The notes: a model not told the origin generated them from the sequence alone. Shown: positions 27,509-53,831, counted from the stretch's first letter. The stretch is DNA of 64,000 bases from Bacillota bacterium (GCA_014896375.1 JADBKN010000009.1:75088-139087); one strand, 5' to 3'. Program-made: numbers and translations.

Positions 27509-27627
27509 CGAACCTTCCCCCTGATCACGGTTGCAGGACCGTCTGGTTTTATGTTGAATACACCCCCGGCGCTTGAATAAAGTTGCCTGCCGTGGGTCAC
27601 GCTACCACCGGCGAAGGGGGACCACCG

Positions 27628-36160: not shown

Positions 36161-37726
36161 ATGGCGAGCGGGTTTGAAGAAGGGAAGCGGTGCAGAGGGA
36201 GGTCATGTGCCACGGGTTCCGTCGCGCCGACGCCGGTGGACCGCCGCCTCGACGTGAACCGTGAGTGGCTGCGCGACCGGCTGGGATTGGATCAGAGTTT
36301 CGACCTACTCTGGCGCGAGGTCGAGGTGGGCGGCAGCCGCGCCGGGCTCCTCGCCGTGCGCGGCCTCGTGCGGGAGGACGTCCTGGAGCGGGTGCTGGCG
36401 CTCCTGCAGCACCTGCCGGAGCATCGGCCGCCAGGGACGCCCGGCGCGCCTTGGGCAAGCCACGCGGGCGACGGCGGCGGTGCGGCGGTGCACCACGAGG
36501 GCGGCCGCGCACCCGGGGGCGGCGCGGCGGAGGCGTGGGCGCGGCGGTACCTGTCGCCGCCGGACATCGAGACCCTCGACACGTTGGAGGCCGTCGCCGA
36601 GCGCGTGCTGCGCGGCTCGGCGGCGCTGTTTTTGGAAGGGGCCGAGACGGCTGTGACCCTCGGCGTTGCGGCTCCGGCATCCGTTCCCTTAGGCGCCGCA
36701 TCCGGCTTCGGGGGCCCGGGAGGCCCCTCGTTCGCCGGGCATTTGCGCGCGGACGCCGCGCTCCTGCGGCGCTTCCTACCGCTGCAGGGTCTGCGCGTGG
36801 AGTGCATTCCGGGCAGCGGCCGCGGTGCGGATATGGCGATCGCATATGTGCGGGGCCTCGCCGACGCGGAACTGGTCGCGCGCGTCCGCGAGGCACTGAG
36901 GGTGGCGGCCGGGGACGGACCCCGCGAGGCCGCCCGCGCCCTGGCCTTCGTGCGCGACGGACGACGGGGCGGCGCGCGACGCTTTCCGGCCGTACACCGC
37001 GTGGCGGACGCCCGGAGCGCCGCCGGAGCGTTGCGCGCGGGCCGTGTGGCCGTTCTCCAGGAGGGCGTGCCGGAAGCATGGCTGGTGCCTGCGTCGCTGC
37101 GGGACCCATGGATCTCGGCCGACGGATGGGCCGCCCCCCGATCGGCAGCCCAGGCGGCGAGCTCCTTGGCCGCCGGCTGGGTGCTGCTCCCCGCCGCGCT
37201 GCTCCTCCCGGCGGCGACGGTGCAGACGCGCTCTCTCTGGCTTCCGCTGATCGGGGCGGAGGCCGTGCTGGCCTTGACGCGAGCGGCGCTGGCACCGTTG
37301 GGACGCGCTGCCCCGGCGTGGGAACTCGTGGCGGCCGCGCTGCTCGCGCCGGTGGCGGTGGCGGCCGGGCTGATCAGCGCTCGAGGCGCGCTGCTCGCCA
37401 TCGTGAGCGCGGCCGCAGCCGCCGCCGTGCCTGGGGCGGAGCTGCGCACGGCCATATGCGGTTGGCGTGCGGCCGCCACGGCTGCGGCCGGGCTCGTGGG
37501 CGTGTGGGGGGTGCTGGCGGCTACCGCGCTGGCGGTCGTGGCGCTGCTGCGCGGAAGCGGACCGCGCGGCCCGAAGAGGGCACGGCCTGCGGCGGTGGGC
37601 GAGCGCGCCGGGGAGGCGGTAGGGGACGGGCCGAAGGCACGGGGTATGGCGGCGCCGGACGGCGGGGCGAAGGCAGACGCCGATGAGGCGAGCGGCCGGG
37701 CGAGGGCTCGGACCCTTTGCTGGTGA
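36161..37726 (+). CDS. spoVAF: Stage V sporulation protein AF (GerA-family spore germination protein homologue). The start codon is uncertain.
   Basis: GerAA-like N-terminal soluble domain (…SFDLLWREVEVGG…DIETLDTLEAVAERVLRGSAALFLEGAETAVTLGV…) followed by TM helices. Position after spoVAEB and before lysA, as in the B. subtilis spoVA operon. Confidence 0.7.
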   Translation: MASGFEEGKRCRGRSCATGSVAPTPVDRRLDVNREWLRDRLGLDQSFDLLWREVEVGGSRAGLLAVRGLVREDVLERVLALLQHLPEHRPPGTPGAPWASHAGDGGGAAVHHEGGRAPGGGAAEAWARRYLSPPDIETLDTLEAVAERVLRGSAALFLEGAETAVTLGVAAPASVPLGAASGFGGPGGPSFAGHLRADAALLRRFLPLQGLRVECIPGSGRGADMAIAYVRGLADAELVARVREALRVAAGDGPREAARALAFVRDGRRGGARRFPAVHRVADARSAAGALRAGRVAVLQEGVPEAWLVPASLRDPWISADGWAAPRSAAQAASSLAAGWVLLPAALLLPAATVQTRSLWLPLIGAEAVLALTRAALAPLGRAAPAWELVAAALLAPVAVAAGLISARGALLAIVSAAAAAAVPGAELRTAICGWRAAATAAAGLVGVWGVLAATALAVVALLRGSGPRGPKRARPAAVGERAGEAVGDGPKARGMAAPDGGAKADADEASGRARARTLCW

Positions 37727-37876
37727 TCCCCAGCACAGCCCAACAACCGTCTCCCCGCACGCGGTTTGTCAATAGTCCCAAAAGGCGCCTTAGCCGATGG
37801 GGCAGGGAGCATGGCCGAGCATGGGCGACGCCCCACGCCAGCGCAGATCGCTCCCCGCCCTGCAGCGGCCGCGCCT

Positions 37877-37969
37877 CCCGCCGCCCTGCGACCGTGCGCA
37901 GCCCGGCGTCTCGCCACCGCCCCGCAACGCCCGCGCCTCCCGCCGCCCTGCGACCGTGCGCGTCCCCGC
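37877..37969. repeat. Tandem direct repeat: two copies of CCGCGCCTCCCGCCGCCCTGCGACCGTGCGC (31 nt; about 40 nt with imperfect flanks) with a 62-bp period, in the spoVAF-lysA intergenic region
   Basis: Exact 31-mer at 37877-37907 and 37939-37969. Flanks are also similar (gcagcggCCGC… vs gcaacgcCCGC…). Confidence 0.8.
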
Positions 37970-38289
37970 GATGGCCCAGCCAGCCGAGCTGCGCGCTGTG
38001 AGCCCGCCCGACCACCGCGCCGAGTGGCTCCCGGTCGCGTGTCGCCGCCACCGGGGCCGCCTTCGCCCCCCTCCCGCGCGCGGCTCGGGGCCGCCACCCC
38101 TCCCGGCCCCCGTCCAGCGCCGCGCGGCCTGCCCGCCATCCCCTTCCGCCTGGGTGCACCTGCCACTACGGCGGCCAGAACCGCGCGGACGCGCCTCCCT
38201 TCGGCCGCGTCGCGAGGGCACTCCAAACCCCGGCTGGCGGGGCCGTCCATGTGTTGACGGAACGCGCTTTCGCCGTTACCATCCATCCC

Positions 38290-39633
38290 ATGCAGAGGGA
38301 ATCTGCCCCGGTTCGACAAGCCGCTCCCGCCGGCGTCTCCGACTTCCCCGAAGGGGTCTCGCGCGGCCCGGACGGTGTCCTGTGCTTCTCCGGCGTCCGG
38401 CTGACGGAACTCGCCGAGCGCTACGGCACGCCGCTGCTCGTACTCTCGGAAGACGTGGCGCGCGCGGCCGCGCTCCGCTTCATCGACGCGTTCCGGCGCG
38501 CCTTCGGGCCGCGGGCGTCGGTCTCCTACGCCGCCAAGGCGCTGGCCTTGCCGGCCTTCTTCCGGGCGCTGGCTGACCTCGACCTCTCGTTCGACGTCGT
38601 CTCCGCGGGCGAGGCCGCCGCGGCGCGCTTCGCGGGCATCGCCCCGGAGCGCCTGCGCCTGCACGGCAACAACAAGCCGGATGCGGAGTTGCGCATGGCG
38701 GCCGCGGGCGGAGTGGGGCAGGTCGTCATCGATAACCCCGAGGAGCTGGAGCGGTGGATCGCGATGCCGCGGCCGGCGGAGCCTCCGGTACTCTTGCGCG
38801 TCGCGCCCGGCCTCAGCCCCGACACGCATGAATACATCTCCACCGGCGGCCGCGGCGGCAAGTTCGGCTTCGACGGGCCGAGCGGCGAGGCGCTGCGCGG
38901 CCTCCTACGCGCCTACGCCGCGGGGGTGCGCGTCGCCGGTCTCCACGCGCACCTCGGGTCGCAGATCGAGGACGTCTCCATCTACGCGGCCAGCCTGAGC
39001 TATCTGTACGACCTCCGCCGGCACTTCCACGAGCGCACTGGGGTATGGCTGGAGGAACTGAACATCGGCGGCGGGCCGGCCTACCGGTACACGGAAGAGC
39101 GCGCGCTGGACGCCGAGGCCTGGGCCGCGGAGGTGGCGCGCGCGGAGCGCGAGGCGGCAGCCGGGCAGCCGCCGGCGCGCATCGGCATCGAGCCGGGCCG
39201 CGCCATCGCGGCGCCCGCGGGCCTGACGGTCTACACCGTGGGCGACGCTCACCGCGTGCCGGGCTTCACGCCCGTCGTGGCCGTGGACGGCGGCATGGGC
39301 GACAACATCCGCCCGGCGCTCTACCACGCGCGCTACGGTGCGGCGCGCGTGGAGGGGGAGGGTCCGGTCGAGGTGTGCCACATCGTGGGCCGCTATTGCG
39401 AGTCGGGCGACGTCCTCATCACGAACGCGCGCCTGCCGCGGCTGCGCCGCGGCGACCGCCTGGCCGTCTTCGGCACGGGCGCCTACACCTTCCCCATGTC
39501 CATGCGCTACAACGGCGTGCCGCGCCCCGCCGTCGTGCTGGTGCGCGGTGGCGAGCACGCCTGCGTCTGCGAGAGAGAGACGGAGGAAGACCTGCTTCGC
39601 GGCCAGCGCCTGGCCCCATGGCAGGTACCTTGA
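38290..39633 (+). CDS. lysA: Diaminopimelate decarboxylase. Alternative GTG start at 38251.
   Basis: Fold-III PLP decarboxylase motifs (…VSYAAKALALPAFFRAL…, …HGNNK…, …LHAHLGSQI…, …EPGRAIAAPAG…, …CESGD…). Follows the spoVA operon as in B. subtilis. Confidence 0.85.
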   Translation: MQRESAPVRQAAPAGVSDFPEGVSRGPDGVLCFSGVRLTELAERYGTPLLVLSEDVARAAALRFIDAFRRAFGPRASVSYAAKALALPAFFRALADLDLSFDVVSAGEAAAARFAGIAPERLRLHGNNKPDAELRMAAAGGVGQVVIDNPEELERWIAMPRPAEPPVLLRVAPGLSPDTHEYISTGGRGGKFGFDGPSGEALRGLLRAYAAGVRVAGLHAHLGSQIEDVSIYAASLSYLYDLRRHFHERTGVWLEELNIGGGPAYRYTEERALDAEAWAAEVARAEREAAAGQPPARIGIEPGRAIAAPAGLTVYTVGDAHRVPGFTPVVAVDGGMGDNIRPALYHARYGAARVEGEGPVEVCHIVGRYCESGDVLITNARLPRLRRGDRLAVFGTGAYTFPMSMRYNGVPRPAVVLVRGGEHACVCERETEEDLLRGQRLAPWQVP

Positions 39634-39657
39634 CCGGACGCGCGTGCCCGGCCTACG

Positions 39658-40293
39658 ATGGCGACGATGATGACCGATCTGACCGTCCTCATCTACGGCG
39701 TGCCGGGCCTGCTCTTCGCCCTGTCCTTTCACGAATACGCGCACGCCTGGATGGCGACGCGTCTCGGTGATCCGACCCCCCGTGCCGCCGGGCGGCTGAC
39801 GCTCAACCCCTTCGCGCACGTCGACTGGTTGGGGCTCATCATGCTGTGGGTGGCGCGCTTCGGCTGGGCGCGGCCTGTGCCGGTGGACCCGCGCTACTTC
39901 GCGCGGCCGCGATCGGGGATGCTGTGGACGGCGCTCGCCGGCCCGGCGGCGAACGCCATTGCCGCGGTGGCGAGCGCGTGGCTGCTCGTGCGCGCGGACC
40001 GGCTGCTCGGAGACGCCGCGGGAGCCGCCGACGCCGTGCGCATCATCCTCTACCTCTCTCTCGTGTACAACGTCTCCCTGGCCATCTTCAACCTCATCCC
40101 GGTGCCGCCGCTCGACGGGTCCCGCATCCTTGGCAGCCTCCTGCCGCCGCGGGCGGCGTGGCGGTACCAGCAGATCGAGCCGTACGGCTGGCTCGTGCTC
40201 CTTCTGCTCGTGGCCTCGGGCTACGTGGGCAACATCATCGCCCCGCTGATCAACGCCATCACGCGCGCGCTTCTGGGGTGGTTCTCGACGTGA
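39658..40293 (+). CDS. Site-2 protease family (M50) zinc metallopeptidase
   Basis: HExxH in a TM helix (FHEYAHAWMA), a second zinc-ligand region (…NLIPVPPLDGSRIL…) and a multi-TM topology. Confidence 0.8.
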   Translation: MATMMTDLTVLIYGVPGLLFALSFHEYAHAWMATRLGDPTPRAAGRLTLNPFAHVDWLGLIMLWVARFGWARPVPVDPRYFARPRSGMLWTALAGPAANAIAAVASAWLLVRADRLLGDAAGAADAVRIILYLSLVYNVSLAIFNLIPVPPLDGSRILGSLLPPRAAWRYQQIEPYGWLVLLLLVASGYVGNIIAPLINAITRALLGWFST

Positions 40294-50497: not shown

Positions 50498-51658
50498 ATG
50501 GCCAACTTCGATGTGATCATCGTCGGCGGCGGCGCCGTCGGCGTCAGCGTGGCACGCACACTGGTGGGGGAGGGCGTGAGGGGCGTGGCGCTCTTGGAGC
50601 GCGCGCACCTCGCGGCCGGCTTCACCTCCCGTGCGGCGGGCATCGTCTCCGCGCTGACGTGGGATCCTACGGACGCCCGGCTTGTCACGCGCTCGGCGGA
50701 GATCTACCGGCAGGTGGCCGCCGACCATCCCGGCCGCTTCCGCTTCCTCGAAGGCGGCATGCTGACGCTCGTGGGCGACCGGGCGGCGGCCGCTGCGATG
50801 GACCGGCGCGCGGCCATGCTGCGCGAAGTGGGGGTACGCGTGGAGCGGCTCCATCCGGAAGAGGCGGCCGCGCGCTGGCCCGACCTGCGCCTGGACGGCG
50901 TGGTCGCCGCCTGGTTCACGCCGGACGACGGCCACGTCTACGCGTACGACTACACGACGGTGGTGGGAGAGGAGATCGCAGCGCGCGGCGTGCGCATCGT
51001 CCGGGACACGGCGGCGGCGCGCGTGGCCATCGAGGGCGGGCGCGCGGCCGGCGTGGAGACGGCCGGCGGCGAGCGCCTCGCGGCAGACGTCGTCGTGGCG
51101 GCGAACGGCGTCTGGAGCCGCAAGCTCCTGCGCGCCTCCGGGCTCGACCTGCCACTTAAGCCCTACCGCACCCAGGTGGCGGTCCTCGAGGCGCCGGAGG
51201 CGCCGCGTGTGCCGATCCTGCACGACACAAGCCTCGAGTTCTACTGGATCCCCGACGGGCGCAAGATCATCTTCGGCGACGGGACGGAAGAGAGGGAGTC
51301 GGACCCGGACGCCTTCTTTGACGCGAACGACGAGGACTTCCTGCTCTCCGTGGCCGAGCGCCTGCCGCGGCGCTGCGCCGGCGGGGCGTCGGCGCGGCTG
51401 ACGGGCGGCTGGGCCGGCCTCTGCGACGCCACGCCGGACCGGCGACCGCTCCTCGGGCCGTACGGCGGCGTGGAGGGGCTGCACCTGGCCGTCGGCTTCA
51501 ACGGCTTCGGCGTGATGCGCGCGCCGGCTGTGGGCGAGGCCGTCGCGCGCCTCGTCCTCGGCCGGCCGGCGGGGCTCGACCTCGCCACGCACCTCGCGCG
51601 GCGGTTCTCGGGCTTCGTCGACTTCCCCATCACGCAAGGGTTCAGCACGGTGGAGTGA
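50498..51658 (+). CDS. FAD-dependent oxidoreductase (DAO family; sarcosine/D-amino-acid/opine oxidase-like)
   Basis: N-terminal dinucleotide-binding motif DVIIVGGGAVGVSVA and a DAO-family C-terminus (…GLHLAVGFNGFGVMRAPAVGEAVA…). Confidence 0.8.
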   Translation: MANFDVIIVGGGAVGVSVARTLVGEGVRGVALLERAHLAAGFTSRAAGIVSALTWDPTDARLVTRSAEIYRQVAADHPGRFRFLEGGMLTLVGDRAAAAAMDRRAAMLREVGVRVERLHPEEAAARWPDLRLDGVVAAWFTPDDGHVYAYDYTTVVGEEIAARGVRIVRDTAAARVAIEGGRAAGVETAGGERLAADVVVAANGVWSRKLLRASGLDLPLKPYRTQVAVLEAPEAPRVPILHDTSLEFYWIPDGRKIIFGDGTEERESDPDAFFDANDEDFLLSVAERLPRRCAGGASARLTGGWAGLCDATPDRRPLLGPYGGVEGLHLAVGFNGFGVMRAPAVGEAVARLVLGRPAGLDLATHLARRFSGFVDFPITQGFSTVE

Positions 51659-52586
51659 GGCGCGCGGCGGCGCCCAGCCGCAAGACGGCCAGCTCCCTGC
51701 GGCACGCGTCCTCAAGGAGACGGGCGGCCTCCCGCAGCGCTTCCGCCTCCTCAAGCGGGCCGGGGCAGATGGAGGTCACGGCCACCTCTCCGGGGACGAT
51801 GCAGTCCAGCGCCCCCGGGCCGAGGGCGCCGGCGAGGATGAGGACGGGCCGGCCCAGACGACGCGCCCGCTCCGCCACAGCCCAGGGCAGCTTTCCCATG
51901 CGTGTCTGCGCGTCCACGCGCCCCTCGCCGGTGAGGACCACGTCCGCCCAGGCGGCGAGGCGATCGAAGCCGGCGAGGTCGAGGAGCGCCGGCGCGCCCG
52001 GCCGCAGGCGCGCGCCCAGCGCCGCCAGCATGAAGCCGAGCCCGCCGGCCGCGCCGGCGCCCGGCAGGTCGCGCAGGCGCTGACCGGCCGCAGCTTCCGC
52101 GTGGTCGGCGAGGAGGCGCAGGCGCTCGTCGAACTCGGGCACGTCCTCGGCGCGCAGGCCCTTCTGCGGTCCAAACACGGCCGCTGCTCCGCACGGGCCG
52201 CAGAGCGGGGCGTCGACGTCGGCGAGGGCCACGATCTCCACGCCGCCGAGCGCCTCCCGACCCGGCCAGCGCAGGCCGCGGACACGCGGCAGCGCGAGGC
52301 GCCCGGGCTCCGGGGGCGGGTCGGCCGCGCCGCCGAGCGCCATGAGGCAGCCGAGGCCGCCGTCGACCGTCGCGCTGCCGCCGAGACCCACGTACACGCG
52401 GCGCGCGCCGGCAGCCAGGACGGCTCGCAGGAGGGCCCCGACGCCGTAGCTGGAGGCGCGCGTGGGATCGCGCCGCTCCGGCGGCAGGCCCGCCAGCCCG
52501 ATCACCTCCGCCGTGTCGAAGGCGGCCTCGCCGCCGGGGAGCTCCGCCCACCGAACGGCCTTGGGCCGGCCCCAGGCGTCCGGCAC
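51642..52586 (-). pseudogene. glxK: Glycerate kinase (GlxK/GckA family), N-terminally truncated. About 55 aa are missing, including the ADGGEGT motif.
   Basis: The ORF aligns with GlxK from about residue 60 onward (…GRPKAVRWAELPGG… ~ GEPVTARYGWLPDG; …GLGGSATVDGGLG…; C-terminal …MGKLPW…). The only available start is a GTG. An in-frame stop lies 18 codons upstream, and no frame encodes the conserved N-terminus. Confidence 0.6.
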
Positions 52587-52599
52587 CGTCTCCCGGCGC

Positions 52600-53282
52600 C
52601 AGCGGCTGGTGCGATCGCCTCGACGCCTCGCTCGTCAGCTTGGCGATGATGCCGAAGGGGAGAACACCACCGTGATCGCGAGGATGCCGTGGTCAGCCCG
52701 AGGCCGACAAGGGCGACGAACAGGGCGGCAAGAGCAGTTTGATCGTCGGAGAACGTTCATCACGCCCCGGGCAAGGCCGTAGACAGGCCGGTTCGGCGTG
52801 ACGTTCCGGGCGATGGCGAAGATGATCAGGACGCTCATCAGGGCGCCGAGCGTCATGCCGGGCAGCCATCACGGATCGTCTCGAGACGGCCCGGGAGGAC
52901 CTTCAGCATGTACGGCCGGATTCGGCGACAAAAGCGCCGGAAGCGCATCATGGGGCGCTCCAGAGCGAGCCGGCCAACGTCGAGACCGAGGTGCCACCCG
53001 GAAGCGACGAGGGCCGCGGCGAAGAAACAGGGCGGACGCCCACCGCTGTAGGCCCAGGGCGGCGCCGGAAGGGAGCCGCTTCCGGCGGCCGACGTTCACT
53101 TTTTCACGGGAGCACCGTCCTTTTGCCGGAGCGCTCATAAGGGGCATCGCCGGCCGGAACCTCGTCGGGAAGGCGGAACGCCCCTCGGCCTTTGTTCCGC
53201 CTCCGGGCGTCCATCCGGCGGCGGCAAGTTCGGCAAGCCAGATCTCGGCAAAACGTCGTCCGTCGCCGCCTCGACCGAGGGC
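52600..53282 (-). pseudogene. Decayed remnant of a membrane-transporter-like gene. Hydrophobic ORF pieces are split over three frames.
   Basis: The minus strand encodes fragments such as SGSLPAPPWAYSGGRPPCFFAAALVASGWHLGLDVG, MTLGALMSVLIIFAIARNVTPNRPVYGLARGVMNVL and ALAALFVALVGLGLTT in different frames, separated by stops. No intact ORF exists. Confidence 0.35.

Positions 53283-53831
<549 letters not shown>

Follow-up and report, generated by a model that had tools for sequence, protein, structure and literature searches.

The locus described here raises the question of what occupies the unannotated interval between spoVAF and lysA in a genome whose gene junctions are otherwise tight, and of where expression of lysA begins. 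On balance, we favour an explanation that pairs a conserved leaderless lysA promoter with a non-functional, lineage-specific spacer carrying one slippage duplication.

The DNA analysed (the window; 64,000 nucleotides, 72.4% GC) belongs to a metagenome-assembled Bacillota genome (MAG). Its genes run in the order dacF-like PBP5, spoIIAA, spoIIAB, sigF, spoVAC, spoVAD, spoVAEB, spoVAF, gap, lysA and, past lysA, M50 peptidase, scpA, scpB, ytfJ, ku and ligD, which is the classical Bacillus order; scpB was assigned via synteny with two related loci (L081 and L082). The tight gene junctions that the original prediction described around the spoVAF-lysA gap are present, and 48 open reading frames (ORFs) in the window have GGAGG-type sites 4–10 nt upstream of the start. 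The 16S gene on the same contig ends abruptly past the conserved 515–540 region, and because of this truncation the assembly quality of the contig is questionable.

For comparison, relatives with retrievable contigs were taken from a protein search (L081, L082, L083 and L084); a fifth, partial match on a 1.6-kb contig was left out. L081 is the sole close relative, and its contig begins inside spoVAF. A scan of a genome collection with LysA was filled by distant LysA proteins (best 45%), with no close relatives among the matches listed. The features at the centre of the analysis are:

36161 to 37726, plus strand: spoVAF-like gene for a GerA-family spore germination protein (Pfam GerA, E = 3.2e-27).
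37727 to 38243, no strand assigned: lineage-specific spacer without detectable function; L081 lacks it, and DNA homology restarts at 38243.
38254 to 38259, plus strand: TTGACG, -35 box of the lysA promoter; it encloses the spoVAF stop in L081 and a TGA in the lysA frame in L082-L084.
38277 to 38282, plus strand: -10 box TACCAT, separated from the -35 box by 17 nt and from the ATG by 7 nt.
38290 to 39633, plus strand: lysA, diaminopimelate decarboxylase (TIGR01048 equivalog, 347.9 bits vs a cut-off of 297.9).

The gene upstream of the gap is spoVAF by position, since it is a GerA-family ORF located after spoVAC, spoVAD and spoVAEB; the Pfam match covers the N-terminal half of its product only. 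In the public record the product begins at 36254, has 490 amino acids, is named a spore germination protein and has the identical stop codon, TGA at 37724–37726. Protein P0121 is 100% identical to it and ends ...RARTLCW. A protein search with SpoVAF returned its self-match only, low-complexity words having probably filled the candidate list. Identity of SpoVAF to its L081 counterpart is only 42% over 92 amino acids, vs 88% for LysA.

The sequence TTGACG-N17-TACCAT-N7-ATG, without a ribosome-binding site (RBS), had been proposed to stand immediately before lysA, and it does. It is the only promoter-like site in 37300–38500, where shuffled sequences give 0.0, and it matches the sigma-70/sigma-A hexamers at 9 of 12 positions with a 17-nt spacer; across the 64-kb window, 0.00 occurrences of the pattern TTGAC-N17-19-TANNAT-N6-9-ATG are expected. 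No Shine-Dalgarno sequence precedes ATG 38290, the 14 nt upstream being devoid of G, and none was found before the lysA ATG in any of the five genomes. A scan of metagenomes with the promoter motif gave 0 matches. The junction in the five genomes, with LysA identity to the window, is arranged as follows:

Window: LysA 100%; spoVAF, then a 527-bp spacer before the lysA promoter.
L081: LysA 88%; spoVAF stop TGA inside the TTGACG -35 box, without the spacer.
L083: LysA 67%; no spoVAF; about 900 bp with a decayed minus-strand YitT/DUF2179 gene.
L082: LysA 65%; no spoVAF; spoVAEB, then 36 bp.
L084: LysA 60%; no spoVAF; 364 bp of non-coding DNA.

Between genomes this different in layout, the lysA ATG is preceded in 5/5 cases by TTGACG, 17–18 nt, TA[C/G][C/G]AT and 7–8 nt. 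In alignment A2 the TTGACG and TA..AT positions never vary, unlike the unconserved flanks, so that retention of the -35/-10/ATG geometry in four relatives supports the leaderless reading of lysA; among distant LysA loci only 1 of 80 matches the promoter-ATG pattern. DNA identity between the window and L081 is 78–81% over 7.4 kb downstream, and homology starts abruptly at 38243. Within the 36 nt from 38254 to 38289 these two genomes differ by 5 changes, four in the promoter spacer and one downstream of the -10 box, ahead of the ATG, and all 5 would alter an amino acid if the segment were read as coding; such a distribution looks as expected of a promoter and not of a coding sequence. Judged from these alignments, the spoVA-lysA junction appears to be a hot spot for gaining and losing sequence; on the right it is bounded by the lysA promoter, which stays fixed, and that promoter appears to be the only conserved feature of the spoVAF-lysA interval.

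The choice of start codon follows the same comparison. The lysA frame of the window is open from 38002, with candidate starts at GTG 38251, TTG 38254 and ATG 38290, and the public record (LysA, MBE3589691.1) uses the second of these, TTG 38254, which falls within the -35 box. The -35 box of L082-L084 contains a TGA in the lysA frame, 36 nt ahead of the lysA ATG, which makes a longer lysA ORF impossible there. In L084 the ATG is the sole possible lysA start; L082 and L083 have a second ATG 9 nt upstream of it, inside the -10 box. A start with a conventional leader at GTG 38251 or TTG 38254, the outcome that would have counted against a leaderless transcript, finds no support in the relatives, although the public annotation adopts the TTG. 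In the window and L081 the lysA frame includes a TTG or GTG in or beside the -35 box, and a weak G-rich stretch lies 10–16 nt upstream of the TTG inside the box; in these two genomes a leadered TTG start from read-through transcripts would, strictly speaking, still be conceivable. We consider it quite probable, given the conserved geometry, that lysA is transcribed from the abutting promoter as a leaderless mRNA starting with ATG 38290, and the public start at TTG 38254, located in the -35 box of lysA itself, is probably 12 codons too early.

From this arrangement we infer the following mechanism. Transcription from a sigma-A-type core promoter (TTGACG-17 nt-TACCAT) would start on the A of the ATG or immediately beside it, giving a lysA mRNA that lacks a 5′ leader and a Shine-Dalgarno sequence and on which ribosomes would initiate at the 5′-terminal AUG. 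A read-through transcript from spoVA would carry the same ATG internally, without an RBS, and would yield LysA inefficiently; the expectation of a poor yield is based on established knowledge of leaderless initiation. Output of lysA would then come mainly from its own promoter, and the DNA upstream would be near neutral for lysA. If lysA is translated only from a 5′-terminal AUG, DNA upstream of the -35 box should be free to drift, expand or vanish, which is the pattern apparent across the five genomes. In the window, about 0.5 kb of lineage-specific DNA without present function would thus sit at a site of recurrent sequence gain and loss in the clade, and a single 62-bp tandem duplication would have arisen within it by replication slippage, its flanks having since diverged.

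A TANNNT signature about 12 nt upstream of the start codon marks leaderless genes (PMC3160421, Zheng et al., 2011); such TA-led genes are found in a minority of Firmicutes genomes and make up a mean of 4.2% of genes where detected (PMC3160421). Like them, lysA has the first T of a TANNNT 13 nt before the AUG start, no Shine-Dalgarno sequence and a matching -35 box at 17–18 nt. It differs in that its host is a high-GC, spore-forming Bacillota MAG in which most genes use GGAGG sites, and in that the upstream gene's stop codon is built into the -35 box here.

The window shares its gene order with the spoVA-lysA locus of B. subtilis, which runs dacF-spoIIAA-AB-sigF-spoVA...spoVAF-lysA, with lysA beside spoVAF and under its own promoter. 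Unlike that locus, the window has a lysA apparently without leader or RBS and an extra 0.5 kb between spoVAF and lysA, and the presence of spoVAF varies across its clade.

The gap itself is present as predicted, extending 527 bp from spoVAF to the -35 box and 563 bp to ATG 38290. Its core (about 37800–38200) has a GC content of 0.80–0.84 (about 0.82), with 50% C and 31% G on the plus strand, vs 0.50–0.65 GC in short intergenic regions here; its edges approach ordinary intergenic DNA (200-bp windows over the edges about 0.71–0.74 GC, flanks lower). The GC skew of -0.29 is the most negative, i.e., the strongest excess of C over G, in the 64-kb window, and immediately before the spacer the spoVAF tail is among the window's most positive GC-skew stretches. 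A core of about 0.82 GC with so extreme a skew is left unexplained by calling the spacer plain junk or ordinary intergenic DNA; the two properties suggest DNA that once was coding or was duplicated, or else C-rich sequence for Rho loading.

Searches of the spacer gave no coding, RNA-structure or homology signal. The earlier description of Pro/Ala/Arg-rich junk in every frame is borne out by the six translations, which are rich in Arg, Gly, Ala and Pro, and codon-position GC (0.72/0.88/0.85, vs about 0.75/0.52/0.93 in real genes) is coding-like in no frame. Pfam found no domain in four gap ORFs (four of six frames), an exact look-up of the gap ORFs in public gene calls found none, and the public record annotates nothing there. 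The spoVAF frame is open past TGA 37724, from 37727 up to TGA 38255–38257 within the -35 box, the same codon that terminates spoVAF in L081; GC in this read-through frame is lowest at third positions, and the frame, the only one searched in this way, has 0 homologues among 1.84 billion representative proteins. The spacer has no match in plasmid or phage collections, and nothing in the L081-L084 loci is similar to it, the spacers of L083 and L084 included. Two apparent likenesses were rejected: that of the right end of the gap to the L081 spoVAF 3′ end scores 11.0 vs a shuffle mean of 11.3, the shared 'ASRG' being chance, and that to an inverted copy of the G-rich tail of spoVAF comes down to composition, with about 60% identity at many offsets. 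An ncRNA had also been proposed, with an Rfam scan as the check; over 37400–38600 at E up to 10 nothing relevant lies within the gap, and the whole window gave no relevant match and no cis-regulatory RNA at gathering score. Folding of the gap on both strands and of the spoVAF tail plus gap gave z = -1.1, -1.7 and +0.5, all within shuffles. No promoter or intrinsic terminator lies inside the spacer (0 terminators in 37300–38500), and a hairpin at about 37743–37769 is weak (z = +0.27).

The repeat within the spacer consists of two units:

37855 to 37916, plus strand: tandem unit 1, 62 nt, with the exact 31-nt core at 37869–37899.
37917 to 37978, plus strand: tandem unit 2, 62 nt, 51/62 identical to unit 1, with the core at 37931–37961.

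The core, CCGCGCCTCCCGCCGCCCTGCGACCGTGCGC, occurs exactly twice in the gap, 62 bp apart, in agreement with the original prediction, and shuffles of the window contain 0 matches to it even when 3 mismatches are allowed. Similarity between the units extends to 54 nt at 89% and scores 69.9 bits, vs a shuffle maximum of 31.5; no other internal self-similarity rises above shuffles. The sequences flanking the 31-nt cores are related as well, at 20/31 positions vs 36% expected. No third unit lies in register (14–25/62 matches, the compositional expectation), and Tandem Repeats Finder did not report the 62-nt duplication. Further copies of the 31-mer are absent from the 64-kb window and from the relatives' loci (best 22–23/31), and a 31-mer scan of JGI metagenomes gave 0 matches. 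Repeat units folded singly do no better than shuffles. The 11 mismatches between the units all fall outside the core, an outcome with P about 0.002 if divergence were uniform; it could be a mild hint of constraint, or could simply reflect a more recent 45-nt event (93% identity).

A CRISPR array was rejected, as there are only two copies and the inter-repeat sequence is itself related (20/31), so the order is not repeat-spacer-repeat; moreover, the neighbours are sporulation genes, lysA, scpAB, ku and ligD, with no cas gene, and no CRISPR repeat model matches in the gap. The inter-repeat 31 nt, taken as a protospacer, gave 0 viral matches. A dispersed REP or MITE-like repeat was likewise rejected, the sequence being confined to a single locus across the 64 kb, the relatives' loci and the JGI metagenomes.

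The repeat had been put forward as a regulatory binding array, an ncRNA or a duplication scar. When conservation was checked, both gap and repeat proved absent from the nearest relative, L081, which is one of the two findings that, taken together, had been named as refuting a function; of the three options, only the scar fits. A slippage scar is the economical reading, given one genome with two copies and a nearest relative that lacks the repeat. The repeat resembles slippage duplications in GC-rich DNA in its two head-to-tail units, its lack of other copies and its biased composition, and also in that a small in-frame duplication adjoins it: a weak 36-nt in-frame duplication lies in the spoVAF tail next to the spacer, consistent with slippage-prone DNA. 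It departs from the simple ageing of such a duplication in that the mismatches lie entirely outside the 31-nt core and are thus less uniform. Most likely, then, the repeat-bearing gap is real but without function, and the spacer itself apparently has no biological importance.

Among accounts of where the spacer came from, a former coding sequence (a decayed minus-strand gene, or a C-terminal extension of spoVAF cut off by TGA 37724) is unlikely, though it would explain a GC of 0.82 that is coding-like rather than intergenic-like and a negative skew typical of minus-strand genes here. L083 holds a decayed minus-strand gene at this very position, and the spoVAF frame runs open from 37727 to TGA 38255–38257, the codon that ends spoVAF in L081; at 80% GC, however, open frames are expected, and this one is without a homologue. 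Neither the codon-position GC nor the Arg/Gly/Ala/Pro-rich translations look like coding sequence in any frame, and the spacer resembles neither the L083 and L084 spacers nor, above shuffles, the L081 spoVAF 3′ end. Such an origin is compatible with the favoured explanation, and a currently functional gene in the spacer is very unlikely. Quite improbable, too, is that the spacer or the duplication is an artefact of MAG assembly: an exact core of 31 nt is close to common k-mer sizes, the 16S gene of the contig stops abruptly and homology to L081 ends sharply at 38243, but an assembler would need the unit 1-unit 2 junction in reads, the unit flanks are also related (20/31 vs 36% expected) as in a real, aged duplication, and the conserved dacF-spoIIA-spoVA-lysA-scpAB order continues on both sides. 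A long unannotated stretch upstream of an amino-acid biosynthesis gene invites the idea of a structured ncRNA, or of a leader with a cis-regulatory role, for instance a lysine riboswitch. This is scarcely credible here, as the gap is unconserved, has no Rfam match at E up to 10, gives fold z-scores in the range of shuffles on either strand and contains neither promoter nor terminator, and it lies outside the lysA transcript given that the lysA promoter is downstream of it.

Current function at the level of transcription or DNA binding was weighed against the same evidence. C-rich, G-poor RNA past the spoVAF stop might be a Rho-loading (rut) region that ends spoVA transcription and shields the lysA promoter, a role we regard as improbable. 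As in rut regions, a long C-rich, G-poor untranslated stretch directly follows a stop codon with no intrinsic terminator detected: about 350 nt have 50% C and 31% G on the transcribed strand, with the window's strongest C-over-G skew, and the C-rich, G-poor character expected over at least 80 nt of transcript extends across 37800–38200. Unlike rut regions, the spacer still has 31% G and strong predicted structure (-260 kcal/mol), which would disfavour Rho loading, and it is unconserved, L081 lacking the spacer and the other relatives having unrelated sequence. More doubtful still is that a DNA-binding protein (for example a spoVA/lysA regulator or a nucleoid protein) occupies the two 31-nt cores as a pair of sites about six helical turns apart. 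The cores are perfect while their flanks have diverged (P about 0.002), and a 62-bp spacing would place both on one face of the helix, but the sites lie about 290–385 bp upstream of the only promoter, that of lysA, the core has no dyad symmetry and no more copies in the 64 kb or the relatives, and the pair is absent from L081. The spacer and its two 31-nt sites might, with quite low probability, together form a recently evolved insulator, in which Rho loading or a protein roadblock would keep forespore-specific spoVA transcription off the lysA promoter. The setting imagined for it, in terms just as speculative, is a lineage that packs promoters into junctions of about 36 nt, with a -35 box doubling as the upstream stop codon.

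The lysA promoter has a counterpart of the same build at the other end of the gene:

39630 to 39669, plus strand: promoter of the M50 peptidase gene, TTGACC-N18-TACGAT-N7-ATG, with the lysA stop TGA (39631–39633) inside its -35 box.

This second promoter is kept in L081, where the lysA stop also sits in the -35 box, and is not conserved in L082-L084; xerD is preceded by a looser version of the promoter-ATG build. With the favoured explanation of the locus, a Shine-Dalgarno-using, high-GC, spore-forming Bacillota lineage would keep a few leaderless genes, namely lysA, the M50 peptidase gene and possibly xerD, and would offer a case for studying leaderless translation outside Actinobacteria and Deinococcus. 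An upstream stop codon built into the next promoter is also a useful case for gene-start prediction. In the public annotation of L081, lysA is called 24 codons too late.

The public lysA call in the window starts at TTG 38254, inside the −35 box of lysA itself, and the call in L081, a relative's lysA locus, starts at GTG 570, 24 codons downstream of a conserved ATG at 498. Judged from the sequence, both public starts look wrong. Two further sites in the window resemble the promoter of lysA, with −35 and −10 boxes close to the start codon:

Window 39630-39669, + strand: second leaderless-type promoter, M50 peptidase gene, TTGACC-N18-TACGAT-N7-ATG
Window 27554-27592, + strand: candidate promoter before xerD, TTGAAT-N18-TAAAGT-N8-GTG, directly adjoining xerD

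The −35 box of the M50 peptidase promoter contains the lysA stop codon, TGA, and this promoter is kept in L081 (1823-1862) and not in the relatives' loci L082, L083 and L084. The gene xerD was identified by TIGR02225 (399.6 bits) and is, on its sequence, the third candidate for a leaderless gene in the window.

Upstream of the gap that precedes lysA, spoVAF (window 36161-37726, + strand) looks fast-evolving or decaying. SpoVAF is 42% identical to its L081 counterpart, compared with 88% for LysA, and spoVAF is absent from L082, L083 and L084. The Pfam GerA match covers the N-terminal half of the protein only (profile positions 7-261 of 466), and codon GC is lower at the third position and higher at the first and second positions than in neighboring genes. 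The low-complexity C-terminal tail contains a duplication, and the opposite strand carries a long open frame:

Window 37612-37639 and 37648-37675, + strand: 36-nt tandem duplication, in frame, 71% identity
Window 36292-38829, − strand: 845-codon open frame covering the gap together with spoVAF and the beginning of lysA

The 845-codon frame is no gene but a by-product of the ~80% GC content; it could nevertheless mislead ORF-based annotation.

In L083, whose LysA is 67% identical, the interval between spoVAEB and lysA is occupied as follows:

L083 2069-2785, − strand: YitT/DUF2179 membrane-protein gene fragments, between spoVAEB and the lysA promoter

These fragments lie on the strand opposite to spoVAEB and lysA and are apparently a pseudogene.

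Elsewhere in the window, the match to an rRNA gene breaks off:

Window 53273-53828, − strand: partial 16S rRNA gene, break near 53284
Window 51642-52634, − strand: glycerate kinase ORF, Pfam match without the first 57 profile positions

The 16S rRNA match covers model positions 9-546 of 1533 only, ends directly past the universally conserved GTGCCAGCAGCCGCGGTAATACGTAGG, and has rRNA-type promoters upstream. Beyond the break lies unrelated sequence, followed by the glycerate kinase ORF. Either the rRNA gene itself is truncated, or the assembly contains a chimeric join at this point.
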